A DNA stretch of 22,627 bases. It comes from Deferrisomatales bacterium (GTDB taxonomy: Bacteria; Desulfobacterota; Deferrisomatia; Deferrisomatales; JACRMM01). Shown here piece after piece: positions 14,669 through 22,627 of this stretch (its first letter is position 1; every line of letters begins with the position of its first letter). The notes under the pieces are model-generated. The model did no database searches. It had not been told where the DNA came from and saw only the letters and a program-made list of their open reading frames with translations. The position numbers were made by a program, and so were the translations under genes. The DNA is taken from the NCBI GenBank assembly GCA_033551855.1, contig JAWSUI010000058.1, positions 1 to 22,627 on the forward strand, written 5' to 3'.

Positions 14669-14772
14669 CGCCGTGACGGCACCGGGAGCTCGGGGGAGTG
14701 ATGCCGAAGAGGAGTGGCCCGGGGGGCGGGAGTCCCTGGGGAATCGCGGCCGCAGACCCATGCCGGAAACGT

Positions 14773-14806
14773 GAGAGGGCCGGGAGGCAGCGCTCCCGGC
14801 CCTCTC
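14773..14806. terminator. 14-bp perfect hairpin between convergent tlpA and rpmB
   Basis: GAGAGGGCCGGGAG-GCAGCG-CTCCCGGCCCTCTC, 22 nt past the rpmB stop, followed by ACGTTT on the minus strand. Confidence 0.7.
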
Positions 14807-14828
14807 CGCAGGTGCCGCGGGAGGCGCC

Positions 14829-15020
14829 TCAAGGCGCCTTGAGGACCTTGCCGGAGCGAAGACACCGGGTGCAGACCTTGATCCGCTGAACCCCGCCCCC
14901 GACCTGAGCCCTCACGGTTTGCAGGTTCGGCAGGATGACGCGCTTGGTCTTGTTGTTGGCGTGGCTGACGTTCTGCCCCACAGAGGGGCCCTTCCCGCAA
15001 ATTTCACACGTTCTGGCCAT
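14829..15020 (-). CDS. rpmB: 50S ribosomal protein L28 (zinc-binding C+ type), 63 aa
   Basis: [47 protein letters not shown]. Confidence 0.98.
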
Positions 15021-15061
15021 CTCGGTCTCTCCTCTCGGGGCACTTCGCCGAAGAAACGCAC

Positions 15062-15091
15062 TCTATAACACGCCTTGGCTACCACGCTCAA
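15062..15091 (-). promoter_or_regulatory. sigma70-type promoter for rpmB
   Basis: TTGAGC-N18-TATAGA with an extended -10 TG. Confidence 0.5.
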
Positions 15092-15108
15092 GGACCTCTT
15101 GGCTCTCT

Positions 15109-15308
15109 GGATCCACCACTTGGCGCGTGCTCGGGGTCGGGGAGCCCCTCCGCTCCGCCCCGCAATCCGCGATATCCGGACGGGCCGTCGGCGAGGAAGC
15201 GGGTATGCCCCGCTTCACCCGATCTTGCCGGACTCGGCGGGTCGGTCGATGCGGTGCGGGGGTGCTCTCCGGGGCTCCCGGACCCCGCCCCGGGTGTGGG
15301 GGTGGATT
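15109..15308 (+). repeat. Dispersed ~200-bp fold-back intergenic element, copy 1
   Basis: 117/156 nt ungapped identity (15136-15291) to 19218-19373. Inverted repeats at 15133-15148 and 15271-15286. Confidence 0.85.
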
Positions 15309-15453
15309 GGGGGGTCCACGTGGCTTCTTCGGGTTCCCGTGTGCCTCGGGGGTGGCCTGGGGCGCACCGATGGCCCGGCCGTCGGCGGTTTCCGGCGGCC
15401 TCCGTGCGGCAGGGGGTCCTGTAGATGGTTGGGGTGCCGCCGGAAACGCCCCC

Positions 15454-17028
15454 TCAGCGGGTTGCCGCGGGGATCGGGAGGTCGTAGGCGATCAGGCGGG
15501 TGTTCATGGTCCGAAACAGCCCTCCCTCGGTCTGGACCAGGGCGACATAGGCGGTGCGGCCCTCTGGGCGCTGGGGCCCCAGGTCCAGGTCGGGGATGAA
15601 GCCGGGGATCTTCGGGCCCTCGGCCACGGTGGTGAGGGTGAGACCGTCCCAGCGCAAGGCCAGGAGTTGGCCGTGGGAGAAGCTCGCGATGCGTTGGAGA
15701 ATCCGCCCCACACTCGACTGGTTCCTGGCCGTCAGCAGGACCGGCCGGCCGTCATTGCCGACCCAGGACAGGGTCCTGCCCTGGACCCGGAAGATGTCCT
15801 CGTCCTGGCGGCCGCCCACCCGTTCCTCCCCCCTCAGGAAGATGCGGCTTCCCTTGACGGAGTCGGCCCCCTGGAAGACGCGGTTTCCCTCGGCGTCATA
15901 GATCCACAGGGTGTCCCGGCGGCTGGTGATCACGGAAAAGACCCCTCCCGGGTCTCCCGCCGAGACCAGGTCCAGGTTCACCGGGCCGGCCGCCGGGGGC
16001 GCGACGAACGTGCCCTCTTCCCGGTACGTCGAGCCGGTCCAGACGAAGTGCCCCACGGTGGGGCCGAAGAGGTCCTTGCCCAGCCCGGGCGTCCGCCCCA
16101 GGAGGATCGGGCCCCTCTCCGGGTGGTGCACGACACGGAGGAAGGCGTGGAGGCGACTCCCCTTGGGGGCGAGGGCGGACCCGAACCACTCCAGAGCCTG
16201 AGTGACCGGCTGGGTTCCGCTCATCCCCGCGACGAAGAGCTCGGGCAGCCCGTTGCCGTCCACGTCCCCGGCGGAGAGGACCCTCGGCTGGAACCCCCGC
16301 GGGACGGGGCTCTCCCAGGCCCGCACGAGGGCCCCGTCCACGTCGCGGAAGGCGACGATCACGTCATCCAGGAGGAGCAGGATCTCGTGCGAGCCGTCCC
16401 GGTCCACGTCGGCGACGACGAGGCTCAGGGCCTCGCCCGGCACGGTGGGGCCCGCGCGATGGTTCCGCAGGGCGAGGGCCAGGTGGGCTTCCTCCTGCAG
16501 GGGAGACGCACCCGTGGGCGCCTCGGCCGCCGGCAGGCTGGGGATTGGCGAGGGAGCCGGGGCGCGAGGTGGGGCGGGAGCCGGCACGGCCCCTGCCGAG
16601 GCCGGGGGCGCCTCGGAGCTGGCGGCGATCCGGACCAGCGCTTCCCGCAGCCGCGCCGCCACCTGGTCCAGGGCCGGCAGGAGTGCCTCGACGGAGCGGG
16701 CCGTCTCGTAGGTGCGGGTTCCTTCCCCCGTGCCGGTCACCGGCTCGAGGGAGGCGTCGATGCTGTACACGCCTCCCAGGTGGGTGATCGTCATGCGCAC
16801 GGCCCAGGCTTCTTCCCCGGGCTCCTGCGTCTTCACGGTTTCCACCGAGTACCCGGGTCCCGCGAGCCGGCTCGCCAGCATGGATTGGAGGCCGGAGGCC
16901 AGTGCCTCCACATCCCGAGCGTTGTACACCTCCAGAGGACGCACCACCACCCTCTGCTCCGACGCGAGGACCGTCGCACAGGGAAGTAGGAGGAGGGTGA
17001 GAAGCAGACGCAGGGGCGCGCGGGTCAT
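15454..17028 (-). CDS. Secreted FG-GAP/VCBS-repeat protein, ~524 aa
   Basis: Signal peptide (RLLLTLLLLPCATVLA), alpha/beta N-terminal domain, Pro/Ala linker, repeats ADVDRDGSHEILLL and GDVDGNGLPELFVAG. Start 17028 or 17034. Confidence 0.85.
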   Translation of the reverse strand: MTRAPLRLLLTLLLLPCATVLASEQRVVVRPLEVYNARDVEALASGLQSMLASRLAGPGYSVETVKTQEPGEEAWAVRMTITHLGGVYSIDASLEPVTGTGEGTRTYETARSVEALLPALDQVAARLREALVRIAASSEAPPASAGAVPAPAPPRAPAPSPIPSLPAAEAPTGASPLQEEAHLALALRNHRAGPTVPGEALSLVVADVDRDGSHEILLLLDDVIVAFRDVDGALVRAWESPVPRGFQPRVLSAGDVDGNGLPELFVAGMSGTQPVTQALEWFGSALAPKGSRLHAFLRVVHHPERGPILLGRTPGLGKDLFGPTVGHFVWTGSTYREEGTFVAPPAAGPVNLDLVSAGDPGGVFSVITSRRDTLWIYDAEGNRVFQGADSVKGSRIFLRGEERVGGRQDEDIFRVQGRTLSWVGNDGRPVLLTARNQSSVGRILQRIASFSHGQLLALRWDGLTLTTVAEGPKIPGFIPDLDLGPQRPEGRTAYVALVQTEGGLFRTMNTRLIAYDLPIPAATR

Positions 17029-17074
17029 CGACATCCTTTCCTGCGCCCCGGGGCGCGAGATGGGTGCGCGCGGT

Positions 17075-17782
17075 CTAACCGGGCGGGAGCCCGCCCTCGT
17101 CCGCGAAGCTGTAGTAGCAGTCCCGGCCGACGATTACGTGGTCCAGGACGCGAATGCCCAACACCTTGCCCGCTTCCCAGAGCCTGCGGGTGAGCTCCAC
17201 GTCCTCGCGGCTCGGGGCAGGATCGCCGCTTGGGTGGTTGTGGGCAAAGATGACGGCCGACGCGGCCTCGCGGACGGCGGCGCGAAAGGCCTCCCGGGGA
17301 TGCACCAGGCTCGCCGTCAGGGAGCCCTCGCTCACCCGGTCCTCCCGCAGCCAGCGATTGCGGGCGTCGAGCAGCAGACAGAAGAAGTTCTCTCGCTTCA
17401 GCTCGGCCAAGCGCGGCCCGTAGTGTTCATAGACCTCGCCGCTGCCTCGAAAGGCACCGGCCGCCGGCAGGGGTCGGCTGGCCAGGCGCCGCCCCAGCTC
17501 GAGGGCCGCGGCCACCGTGGCTGCCTTGGCGGGGCCGATTCCCCGGTGTTGCGCCAGCTCCGCTGCGGAGGCCTGCCCCAGGGCTGCCCAGTCTTCCTCG
17601 TAGGACGCCCAGAGGCTGCGGGCAAGGTCCAAGGCGGTGCGGCCGCCCCCCCCGTCCCCGGTCCGCAGCAGGACGGCGAGCAACTCGGCGGGCCCCAGCG
17701 CCGAGGGGCCGCGGGTACAGAGCCTCTCCCTCGGCCTCTCCTCGCGAGGCCAGGTCTTGATCCCCCTCGGTGTCTCCCCCAT
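17075..17782 (-). CDS. radC: RadC / UPF0758 JAB-domain protein, 235 aa
   Basis: IKTWPREERPRERL, ELLAVLLRTG, HhH GIGPAKA, VHPRE, HNHPSGDPAPSRED, LDHVIVG. Confidence 0.96.
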   Translation of the reverse strand: MGETPRGIKTWPREERPRERLCTRGPSALGPAELLAVLLRTGDGGGGRTALDLARSLWASYEEDWAALGQASAAELAQHRGIGPAKAATVAAALELGRRLASRPLPAAGAFRGSGEVYEHYGPRLAELKRENFFCLLLDARNRWLREDRVSEGSLTASLVHPREAFRAAVREAASAVIFAHNHPSGDPAPSREDVELTRRLWEAGKVLGIRVLDHVIVGRDCYYSFADEGGLPPG

Positions 17783-17811
17783 GCTCTCCCCCGCGACGGC
17801 TCGCAGTAAGG

Positions 17812-17841
17812 ATTGTAGAGACCGCAAGGAAGCGGTGTCAA
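17812..17841 (-). promoter_or_regulatory. Near-consensus sigma70 promoter for radC with a dyad in the spacer
   Basis: TTGACA-N18-TACAAT containing ACCGC-N6-GCGGT. Confidence 0.7.
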
Positions 17842-19025
17842 ACGGGATTGCGGCCGCGGAGCCCGCCGAGGGCCGCGGCATACACCTCCTTGAGGGGAAC
17901 CCCCGCCTCCCGCGACAAGCGCCGGCAGTCCTCGAACTCCGGGGCGCGGTTCACGACCCGCCCGCCCCTCACCCCCACCTTCACACGAACGGGGCCCCAC
18001 GGGGTGGCTGCCTCTTCCCAGGACCGTCCGAGGCACGAGCGGTCGACCGTCAGGGAGCGCAGCCCAAGGGTCGATGAGTGGAGGAAGATCGCCTCCTCTA
18101 CGGCGCCGGCCTCCCCCTCCCGGCACAGGGCAGAGAGCAGGTGGGCGGGCCGGCCCTTCTTCATGAGGATCGGGGTCAACCAGGCGTCGAGCGCACCGGC
18201 CTCCAGGCACACCTCGGGCAGGGTGGCCAGGATCTCCGGAGACAGATCGTCGAGGTTCGCCTCCAGAACCCGAAGGGTCTCCGGTCCGGGGCGGGGTCCC
18301 CGTGGGGTCCCGAGGAGGAGTTGAAGGAAGCGGGGGTGCGCTGCAGGCCCCGCGGGTGCGAACCCTGCGCCCGCCGCCTGGAGCACCATCGGCGGAGGCG
18401 GCCCGAAGGAGGTGGCCAGCGTGCGGGCGAGGGCTGCGCCGGCGGGTGTCACGACCACCGAGGCTGCGTCCACTCCGACGGTGGGGAGCCCCGTCAGGAG
18501 CGCCAAAGTGGACGTCTCCCAACAGGGTGCAGCCCCTCCGGGAGCTGCGGGGCCCAGTGGAAGGGGACCGGTGGAGACCGAGGAGATGCCCAGGAGCTCC
18601 CCCGCGAGACAGGCCCCGACGATCCGGAGGGCAGTCGCGGTACCCCCAAGCTCGGCGAGGGTGACCTGATCGAGCCCGATGCCCCGGACCTCGGCCCGGG
18701 CTTCCCCCAGGGCCTCGAGGGCGGCCAGGGCTGTCCGAACGGCCGGGGCGGGCAGGGGCGCCGAAGCCACGGCGTCGCGCAGGACAGGGTACCCGAAGCG
18801 GGACGTGCCAGGGTCCGTCTCCGGCGCCGTGCGGAGCCGCAGCCCCCGAATTCCCTCGTCCTCCGCGGGCTCGAAGGCCAGCTGCACGTCGGAGGCCCCC
18901 GGGACCGGAATCCGCTGGACGGCGGACTCCACCGCTTCCGCTGCGGCGCCCAGGTGTACCAGGCCCGCCAGGAGCATCTCGGCGGAGAAACCGCCGCAGG
19001 GGTGGATGTGGAGGTGGCGCTCCAT
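17838..19025 (-). CDS. larC: LarC-family (DUF111) nickel-insertion protein homologue with a divergent N-terminal domain, 395 aa
   Basis: The C-terminal domain is canonical (EANLDD, GALDAW.TPILMKKGRP, STLGLR, TPWGPVRVK, PEFEDC). The N-terminal domain aligns only loosely (GFSAEMLLAGL, VTPAGAALA). ATG 19025 follows GAGG. Confidence 0.85.
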   Translation of the reverse strand: MERHLHIHPCGGFSAEMLLAGLVHLGAAAEAVESAVQRIPVPGASDVQLAFEPAEDEGIRGLRLRTAPETDPGTSRFGYPVLRDAVASAPLPAPAVRTALAALEALGEARAEVRGIGLDQVTLAELGGTATALRIVGACLAGELLGISSVSTGPLPLGPAAPGGAAPCWETSTLALLTGLPTVGVDAASVVVTPAGAALARTLATSFGPPPPMVLQAAGAGFAPAGPAAHPRFLQLLLGTPRGPRPGPETLRVLEANLDDLSPEILATLPEVCLEAGALDAWLTPILMKKGRPAHLLSALCREGEAGAVEEAIFLHSSTLGLRSLTVDRSCLGRSWEEAATPWGPVRVKVGVRGGRVVNRAPEFEDCRRLSREAGVPLKEVYAAALGGLRGRNPV

Positions 19026-19145
19026 GGGGTCGCCTCGCATCCGGGGCGGGTCATGCGGAGGGTCCGAGGCGTGCCCCCCGGGTGCCGGGGAAGGGCCTGG
19101 CGAAGCCGCTTCTCCGCGGGGTGCTCGCGGCGTACGCCGGTGCCG

Positions 19146-19174
19146 AGGGTAGCAGAGCCGCGAGCTTGAGGCCA
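19146..19174 (-). promoter_or_regulatory. Weak candidate promoter for larC
   Basis: TGGCCT-N17-TACCCT with an extended -10 TG. Confidence 0.3.
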
Positions 19175-19190
19175 GGGGGTGCCGAGACCC

Positions 19191-19391
19191 GGATCCTGCG
19201 GCTGGTCGGCGAGCAGAGTCCGTGAGCCCCTGCGTTTCGCCCCGCAATCCGCGGCCATTCGAAGAGGTGTCCCGGCAGTCCCCGGTGCGCCGGGCTTTAC
19301 CCGCTCGCGCCGGACTCGTCGAGTCGGTGGATGCGGTGCGGGGCTGCTCTCCTGGGCTCCCGGACTCCGCCCCACAATGTGGTGGTGGATT
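19191..19391 (+). repeat. Dispersed ~200-bp fold-back intergenic element, copy 2
   Basis: Homologous to copy 1 at a constant offset of 4082. Inverted repeats at 19216-19229 and 19354-19367. Confidence 0.85.
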
Positions 19392-19416
19392 CTGGGACAG
19401 GTGGTGGGAAGACCCT

Positions 19417-19607
19417 GGATCCCCCGTCTCGGAGGAGAGCGAGGTCGGGGAGCCCTTGCGTCTTGCCGCGGAACCCGCGGCGAGTCGAGACGGTGCCCAC
19501 CGGGGAGCGGGAGTGCCGAGCCTCACGGATCCCGGTCGGTCTCTGCGCCTCGGTCCCTGCCGTTCCCGGCTACACAGGTCGTCCCGATCCCGCCCAACGT
19601 GTGGCGG
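19417..19607 (+). repeat. Dispersed intergenic element, copy 3 (more diverged, tandem to copy 2, period 226)
   Basis: 80/129 ungapped identity to copy 2 (40/54 in the first block). Same GGATCC 27 nt before the GTCGGGGAGCCC block and the same CCGCCC..TGTGG.GG end. Confidence 0.7.
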
Positions 19608-19729
19608 CGCCTGTGGGAGACCCTGTTGCGGGAAGGGTGCCGGGGGAGAGGTGCTGCTTTGCGAGGGGCGTATTTCGGTGTACATTGCCCGGCCGGGGGG
19701 TAGGGAGATCCATCGAAGAGGAGCAGGTG

Positions 19730-20059
19730 ATGACAGACCCTGGCGCCAAGCGCCGTTTTCCGCGCATTCCGTCGGAGAACGCGGTTCTGATCAAGAAGCT
19801 CGGCCCTGAGGAGTCGGAGGGGTTCGCCAAGACCCGGGTGGTGGGGCTCGGGGGGTGTATGTTCGTGAGCGACGAGCGGCTGGGGGTGGATTCCTGCCTC
19901 GATCTGCTGATCTCCGTGAGGGGCCGCGTGGTCAAGACGAGGGGCCGCGTGGCCTACGAGGTCGATACCGGCGGTGGGGAGTTGGAGGTCGGAGTCGAGT
20001 TCCTAGAGATCTCCCCCCACGACCGGGCCATCCTGCAAGAGCTCTTCCGCCCCCGCTGA
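19730..20059 (+). CDS. Stand-alone PilZ-domain protein, 109 aa
   Basis: N-terminal KRRFPR (RxxxR), GLGG, GRVAY, VGVEFLEI. SD GAGGAG. Confidence 0.88.
   Translation: MTDPGAKRRFPRIPSENAVLIKKLGPEESEGFAKTRVVGLGGCMFVSDERLGVDSCLDLLISVRGRVVKTRGRVAYEVDTGGGELEVGVEFLEISPHDRAILQELFRPR

Positions 20060-22627
<2,568 letters not shown>

Follow-up and report, generated by a model that had tools for sequence, protein, structure and literature searches.

The window analysed here, the whole 22,627-nt stretch, is contig JAWSUI010000058.1 (C58) of the Deferrisomatales bacterium genome G000 (4.24 Mb in 132 contigs, ~70% G+C). It carries three copies of an intergenic repeat in the same orientation, one between rpmB and an FG-GAP gene and two in tandem between a larC-type gene and pilZ. 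Each of these repeats very probably represents a miniature inverted-repeat transposable element (MITE) of 208 nt, which is likely to depend on an IS1380-family DDE transposase for its movement and is predicted to integrate 13-14 bp upstream of the -35 boxes of sigma70-type promoters. The features concerned are the following, both promoters being predictions made from the sequence.

14829..15020, minus strand: rpmB, ribosomal protein L28 (PF00830, 79.1 bits)
15062..15091, minus strand: predicted sigma70-type promoter of rpmB (-35 TTGAGC at 15091-15086, 18-nt spacer, -10 TATAGA at 15067-15062)
15102..15105: target-site duplication of copy 1, promoter side (GCTC; partner GGTC at 15313-15316; 3/4 positions match)
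15106..15312, plus strand: copy 1 of the MITE (207 nt; nhmmer 152.4 bits; intermediate-age subfamily)
17838-19025, minus strand: larC-type gene (PF01969, 279 bits; start at 19025)
19146..19174, minus strand: predicted weak promoter of the larC-type gene (-35 TGGCCT at 19174-19169, 17-nt spacer, -10 TACCCT at 19151-19146)
19184..19187: target-site duplication of copy 2, promoter side (GAGA; partner GACA at 19396-19399; 3/4 positions match)
19188..19395, plus strand: copy 2 of the MITE (208 nt; nhmmer 206.7 bits; young, dominant subfamily)
19396..19413: linker between copies 2 and 3 (18 nt, GACAGGTGGTGGGAAGAC; its last 4 nt are the copy 3 duplication)
19410-19413 and 19618-19621: target-site duplication of copy 3 (AGAC/AGAC, perfect)
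19414..19617, plus strand: copy 3 of the MITE (204 nt; nhmmer 96.1 bits; old, divergent subfamily)

The three same-orientation copies described in an earlier, sequence-only reading of the window were recovered by a repeat finder as a 63-nt repeat (D1) at 15109, 19191 and 19417 (spacing 4082 and 226) and a 90-nt repeat (D2) of 84% identity. Scripted recounts gave identical values for the ungapped comparison of copies 1 and 2 (31/36, 10/30 and 76/90; 117/156) and for that of copies 2 and 3 (80/129). Likewise, GGATCC was found by script to start 27 nt ahead of the GTCnGnGAGCCC block in 3/3 copies, and CCGCCC-N3/5-TGTGGnGG to form the terminus of all three. The bounds set by the family profile (15106-15312, 19188-19395 and 19414-19617) are slightly wider than those first proposed. 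With lengths of 207, 208 and 204 nt, the window copies differ by indels of 1-4 nt. The statement that no target-site duplication is evident did not stand, given the perfect AGAC/AGAC at copy 3 and the 3/4 matches at copies 1 and 2, with which the family-wide statistics given below agree.

Nor is the element limited to three copies. A family profile was built from 99 BLAST-defined copies and yielded 261 nhmmer matches in G000, or 234 places after weak opposite-strand echoes of the palindrome had been dropped. Near-full-length copies occupy 102 of these places, 52 of them exactly 208 nt long, and truncated or split copies the remaining 132; the full-length set used below (n = 102) omits truncated copies by construction. 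The consensus begins CCTGGATCCACC and finishes GGTGGATTCTGG, with positions 1-13 pairing with positions 196-208 as terminal inverted repeats. A perfect flanking duplication of 4 or 5 nt was counted at 51/102 full-length copies; when the pairings were shuffled 1000 times, the mean was 1.5 and the highest count 7. The duplicated words vary between copies.

Beyond G000, the family occurs in G001 and G002, which are two further species of the genus, and in G005, which represents another genus of the same taxonomic family; the other 37 genomes searched yielded no match. A search of the genome and its relatives for copy number and empty sites had been suggested in the sequence-only reading; besides the 234 places, it revealed both window loci to be empty in G001, where no element lies between rpmB and the FG-GAP gene or between larC and pilZ. 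G002 carries one copy at each locus. Its copies may or may not be orthologous to those of G000, to which they are 77% identical at the rpmB locus and 63-64% at the larC/pilZ locus, with ~70% for non-syntenic pairs. The family thus combines a 208-nt unit lacking a transposase gene with inverted tips, variable target duplications, dispersed copies and empty sites. Inverted tips, target-site duplications and empty sites together identify it as a MITE and not as an RNA gene. Prokaryotic MITEs, which are shorter than about 500 bp and lack a transposase gene, include Correia/nemis, ERIC and TIMEs. Like these, the element is small and non-coding, with inverted-repeat ends, target duplications and a high copy number, its consensus can form a hairpin, and its presence varies between relatives. 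It differs from them in its fixed register and orientation with respect to promoters and in having head-to-tail arrays that share one 4-nt linker.

The register became apparent when the flanks of the 102 full-length copies were aligned on the element tip. On one side, hereafter the promoter side, the motif G(T/C)CAAG occupies positions -18 to -13. Exact GTCAA, the reverse complement of TTGAC, starts at -18 in 21/102 flanks and at -19 in 8/102, with counts of at most 2 at any other offset. Further out, A is enriched at -42 and TA at -38/-37, 17 nt beyond GTCAA, which fits a TAnnnT -10 box. Read on the opposite strand, the flank corresponds to a predicted sigma70-type promoter (TTGAC(N), 17-nt spacer, TAnnnT) that is directed away from the element, with 13-14 nt between its -35 hexamer and the element tip. 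The motif lies outside the element because the target duplication is placed in between. No such motif was detected in the far-side flanks of the same 102 copies. On the promoter side of 85/102 copies, the closest gene in a crude annotation reads away from the element, compared with 60/102 on the other side. In the small sample available from the relatives, GTCAA starts at -18 in 3/8 evaluable flanks.

Within the window, the predicted rpmB promoter reads away from copy 1, with its -35 hexamer 14 nt from the tip, and at copy 2 a distance of 13 nt separates the tip from the predicted promoter of the larC-type gene. At the rpmB locus, the CTCAAG and TATA columns are invariant in three species, the element-free G001 included; at the larC-type locus, G000, G002 and G001 share identical TAGCAGAG and GAGGCCAGG blocks. 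Since the element-free loci of G001 retain these blocks unchanged, the predicted promoters are older than the element.

Target duplications of 4-5 bp and tips starting with CC suggest the IS1380 family. In G002, a C-terminal IS1380 transposase fragment (NF033539) was found adjoining a scaffold gap. Some 210 nt past its stop codon, the sequence reads ...GGTGGATCCTGG / ...GGCGGTGGATCCTGG, followed by 13 nt, TTGACG, 17 nt and TAAATT. The reverse complement of this right end agrees, as compared by eye, with the promoter-side tip of the MITE at 12/14 terminal nucleotides. A scan of species genomes with the G002 fragment gave three loci in all, two of them further loci. At L088, a 507-aa transposase scores 205.3 bits against NF033539 (cut-off 180) and also matches PF13701; the end of the element, ...GGTGGTGGATCCGGG, coincides with that of the contig. 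L089, from a metagenome-assembled genome of the Chloroflexota, is a complete element: its tips read CCATAATCCACCA, its 5-bp duplication is GTCGA, and its right end lies 14 nt from TTGACA. The MITE thus has the same termini as IS1380-type elements next to the G002 fragment, at L089 and at the metagenomic loci described below. It resembles the IS1380 family (NF033539) in tips that begin with CC and are similar to IS1380-type tips and in its 4-5-bp duplication, and differs from it in its length of 208 nt and in encoding no transposase. An IS1380 element of G005 (L043 and L046) was considered as a helper and rejected: its tips (...CACGGATTCAGG) are related but different, and it has no clear promoter flank.

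Published accounts describe the IS1380 family as having outward promoters, capture of adjacent DNA and 5-bp duplications (PMC9330008, PMC3281130). ISEcp1 and ISPme1 are given there as examples (PMC9330008), and IS1247 is listed with a length of 1672 bp, inverted repeats of 16/13 and a direct repeat of 5 bp (PMC3281130, Table 2). The family is also reported to be over-represented between co-oriented genes (PMC9208149).

The docking of full-size relatives was evaluated in metagenomes, using an alignment of three C-termini as query. The scan returned 80 loci, and at 68 of these a right-end motif of the type ...GGTGGATT..GG was found downstream of the transposase gene. Loci were excluded if they had no end motif (12), if the motif was too near the end of the open reading frame (3), if the flank was shorter than 45 nt or contained N (14) or if they were duplicates (1). 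Among the 50 evaluable loci, TTGAC lies 13 nt (20 loci) or 14 nt (4 loci) from the right end, i.e. in 24/50, compared with a count of 0-1 in eight control windows of four offsets. A TTG-type hexamer at offsets 12-15 is present in 36/50, and in 21/36 of these it is followed by TAnnnT at a distance of 16-18 nt. The controls were eleven other IS1380 elements from the same phylum, chosen for inverted repeats that agree at no fewer than 14 of 16 positions; they showed a promoter flank in 0/10 cases on the right and 0/11 on the left. Several of them carry CTAG or TTAA duplications, so different IS1380 branches appear to follow different target rules. Judged by these flanks, docking is a property of one IS1380 branch, and the MITE carries the tips of that branch. 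At L058, L059 and L084, other IS1380 loci from the same phylum, CTAG or TTAA words were seen on both sides and no promoter alongside.

Guerillot et al. (2014, PMC3942029) described oriented insertion upstream of sigmaA -35 boxes for TnGBS and for elements of the ISLre2 family and ISKra4 group. In that article, the distance to the -35 box is given as 15-17 bp for TnGBS and 13-17 bp in a screen, and the TnGBS integrative and conjugative elements, the ISLre2 family (p-MULT 3) and the ISKra4 group (p-MULT 4) are assigned Mutator-like DDE transposases; the terms 'IS1380' and 'MITE' each occur 0 times in the same text. The MITE and its IS1380 branch share with these systems what appears to be an oriented insertion at a fixed short distance upstream of -35, here 13-14 bp. 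In those systems, too, asymmetric ends accompany a single orientation. The difference lies in the transposase, which is Mutator-like in those systems and IS1380-type (PF13701/NF033539) in the partner considered here, and the MITE and its branch therefore work like TnGBS, ISLre2 and ISKra4 without being members of these groups. In the part of the literature that was searched, neither IS1380 elements docking at promoters nor MITEs derived from IS1380 were described. Promoter docking was described there only for the Mutator-like TnGBS, ISLre2 and ISKra4 elements, and the landing rule looks new for IS1380. It is fairly likely that docking onto sigma70 promoters, with the right end placed 13-14 bp ahead of the -35 box, evolved independently in a branch of IS1380 (DDE_Tnp_1_4), that docking and orientation are specified by the two tips alone, and that head-to-tail arrays arise from repeated docking at one promoter.

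The MITE tip resembling the right end of the insertion sequence (IS) faces a promoter-like sequence at a fixed distance. In the mechanism proposed, an IS1380-family DDE transposase would mobilise the MITE in trans. The transposase, or a complex including it, may read the -35 region or the sigma factor or RNA polymerase bound there, and insertion just upstream of -35 would leave the core promoter intact. Repeated insertion at one promoter would generate head-to-tail arrays in which the youngest copy adjoins the promoter, the tandem pair in the window being an example. As this model predicts, the promoter-side copy 2 is young and copy 3 is old. In total, ten head-to-tail arrays were found in the genome, with a linker that in most consists of the 4-nt word of the outer duplication, as would be expected if a single promoter-defined site were hit repeatedly. 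Neighbouring copies in the arrays on contigs C2, C6 and C21 are 100% identical, and these arrays may be local duplications or assembly effects. The 18-nt linker of copies 2 and 3 exceeds the 4-5-nt linkers of most arrays; its middle, GGTGGTGGGA, resembles the element's own far tip and may be the remnant of a lost copy.

A number of observations weigh against this reading. The duplications of copies 1 and 2 match at only 3/4 positions. Exact GTCAA in register is found in no more than 29/102 flanks, with a per-position agreement of ~50-65%, and the orientation bias of the promoter-side genes (85/102) rests on crude gene calls obtained with a filter on third-position G+C (GC3; 2736 genes, 74% coding). 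At the -35 boxes of the window, the consensus is matched at 4/6 (rpmB) and 3/6 (larC-type gene) positions, and a strict consensus promoter scan calls neither of the predicted promoters beside the window copies. The model does not account for the 18-nt linker, and with copy 2 removed, copy 3 does not lie 13 nt from a recognisable -35. The two copies of the G005 IS1380 element (with the ...CACGGATTCAGG tips) have no clear promoter alongside. No cognate transposase was found in the G000 assembly, in which the best NF033539 match reaches 23.5 bits, and tblastn with the L088 transposase gave no match in G000 at E<=1e-3. An autonomous copy was also sought in G000 by pairing partial ends 260-6000 nt apart, which returned only arrays, split copies and neighbouring MITEs. 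With no cognate transposase in the assembly, mobility in G000 is therefore historical or the helper is unassembled; a repeated IS may have escaped assembly in a genome of 132 contigs. Finally, the fixed distance to -35 could in principle reflect the survival of harmless insertions instead of targeting. Survival as the explanation is made less likely by a register exact to one nucleotide and by an orientation that does not vary.

Of the candidates put forward in the sequence-only reading, the non-autonomous mobile element was borne out, whereas the protein-binding DNA scaffold and the structured non-coding RNA remained unsupported. The first of these would imply co-option by the host, with MITE copies serving as upstream regulatory DNA that is bound or bent by proteins at about -50 to -260 of many promoters. 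Such a role would be in keeping with the element always taking the place of the sequence beyond about -49, the zone in which UP elements and activators act, with the tightly kept length (52/102 copies of exactly 208 nt), with the co-variation of a few stem positions across subfamilies (pair 34-175: 34 compensated versus 16 broken cells) and with the retention of the rpmB-upstream copy in two species. It is nevertheless unlikely. Full-size IS1380 relatives keep this spacing to unrelated promoters in metagenomes of unrelated origin, so that insertion alone suffices to explain the position; in G001, the rpmB and larC-type promoters do without the element; and many copies are truncated or interrupted (132/234 places).

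A structured multi-copy RNA gene is considerably less probable still. The consensus folds as a 72-pair rod (-122.5 kcal/mol), copies 1 and 2 fold better than their shuffles (z -2.0 and -2.6) and 173 compensated cells were counted, compared with a mean of 107 and a maximum of 125 after column shuffling. The excess, however, comes mostly from a small number of subfamily-marking pairs, the fold of copy 3 is not better than that of its shuffles (z -0.7) and RNAalifold places only 7 consensus pairs (-0.8 kcal/mol) on the 102 copies. The end-to-end hairpin is paired in 81.1% of cells, compared with 79.5% (maximum 80.1%) when partner columns are shuffled, and two inverted ends that have been brought together would be expected to look palindromic. 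Evidence for a conserved fold is weak, and a structured non-coding RNA unlikely. Rfam gave 0 matches at gathering scores on the whole window and none at E<=10 on the copies (14900-19800). The duplicated target sites, the empty loci and the existence of relatives that carry a transposase between the same tips are what a transposon would show.

The least probable reading, that of a REP/BIME-type repeat or an IS110 (bridge-RNA) derivative mobilised through a tyrosine (RAYT) or DEDD recombinase instead of a DDE enzyme, can draw on the site- and orientation-specific insertion and head-to-tail clusters that are typical of REP/BIME and IS110 systems, but was rejected, with no search aimed at RAYT or IS110 genes, on the strength of the variable 4-5-bp duplications and the DDE-type relatives: these duplications, the 12-13-nt inverted repeats starting with CC and the 208-nt unit are foreign to REPs (RAYT-linked imperfect palindromes of 20-40 nt without target duplication) and to IS110 ends, and the same tips bound IS1380-type DDE transposase genes.

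For the MITE, the high divergence at near-constant length is accounted for by the origin of the window copies. The nearest genomic relative is 86.4% identical for copy 1, 93.7% for copy 2 (with 39 copies at least 85% identical) and 78.8% for copy 3. Most positions at which the window copies depart from the consensus recur in three or more other copies (47/51 in copy 1, 13/17 in copy 2 and 60/67 in copy 3), and by these markers copies 1, 2 and 3 stem from three subfamilies of different age. As most differences are shared subfamily markers, the divergence arose in the source lineages and not through decay in place, the length being kept because these lineages had to remain mobilisable. Full-length copies show 41 substitutions per indel event, and 49/102 have no indel at all. 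The scarcity of indels pointed out in the sequence-only reading was hence confirmed among full-length copies, and the selection on length or structure deduced from it proved half right, 132/234 places being truncated or split.

Among public sequencing runs, the stretch was found in one DNA run and in no RNA run. Contigs of the DNA run pile up on copies 1 and 2 at ~1100 and ~2300, compared with 25 alongside, which fits a high-copy repeat. Contigs of this run contained no joint that skips exactly one element, and thus no empty allele, the only joints being cross-mapping ones between copies. Compared with the window, they show a 13-nt deletion at 15383 and a substitution cluster at 15425-15431; these differences fall within 15383-15437, in the interval separating copy 1 from the FG-GAP gene, and are strain-level variation. 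Element variants of ~330 nt were found in G000 at C14:77676-78006, C23:2778-3111, C31:10459-10793 and C47:21004-21316. In these, profile positions 83-115 are present twice, flanking ~100 extra bases.

Long open frames cross copies 2 and 3 (17838-19685 on the minus strand, 19179-19703 and 19222-19809 on the plus strand), the first of which comprises 615 aa and spans both copies. They are probably spurious frames in G+C-rich DNA and could mislead gene callers. The only sigma70 site called by the strict scan within 14700-19800, TTGACA-18-TACAAT at 17812-17841 on the minus strand, immediately precedes radC, where the larC-type gene has its 3' edge. Searches for tRNA and tmRNA genes were negative.

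A second, unrelated repeat family of ~209 nt is represented in the window at 20175-20383, between pilZ and ligA. It accounts for 122 BLAST rows in G000 and 24 places in G002, has its own inverted tips of the type GGTTCCTCCGG... / ...CCGAAGAACC and is not matched by the profile of the first family. The window copy sits inside the long frame 20156-22477, and the true ligA start therefore probably lies downstream of the repeat. Nested insertions were observed twice in G000, where the first-family copies C12:80052-80429 and C25:34690-35113 are interrupted by second-family copies at C12 80130-80338 and C25 34822-35031, respectively.

For this organism, the repeat is an ordinary genomic parasite, which accounts for assembly breaks at such sites and for the long spurious open reading frames through these intergenic regions. 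Each docked copy marks a probable promoter in an uncultured organism for which there is no transcriptome. If docking by the IS1380 branch holds true, promoter docking would be a convergent safe-haven strategy of bacterial transposons, adopted by a second, unrelated transposase family, and two ~15-nt tips plus one protein would provide a compact system for studying how a DDE transposase senses a -35 box or the RNA polymerase bound to it.

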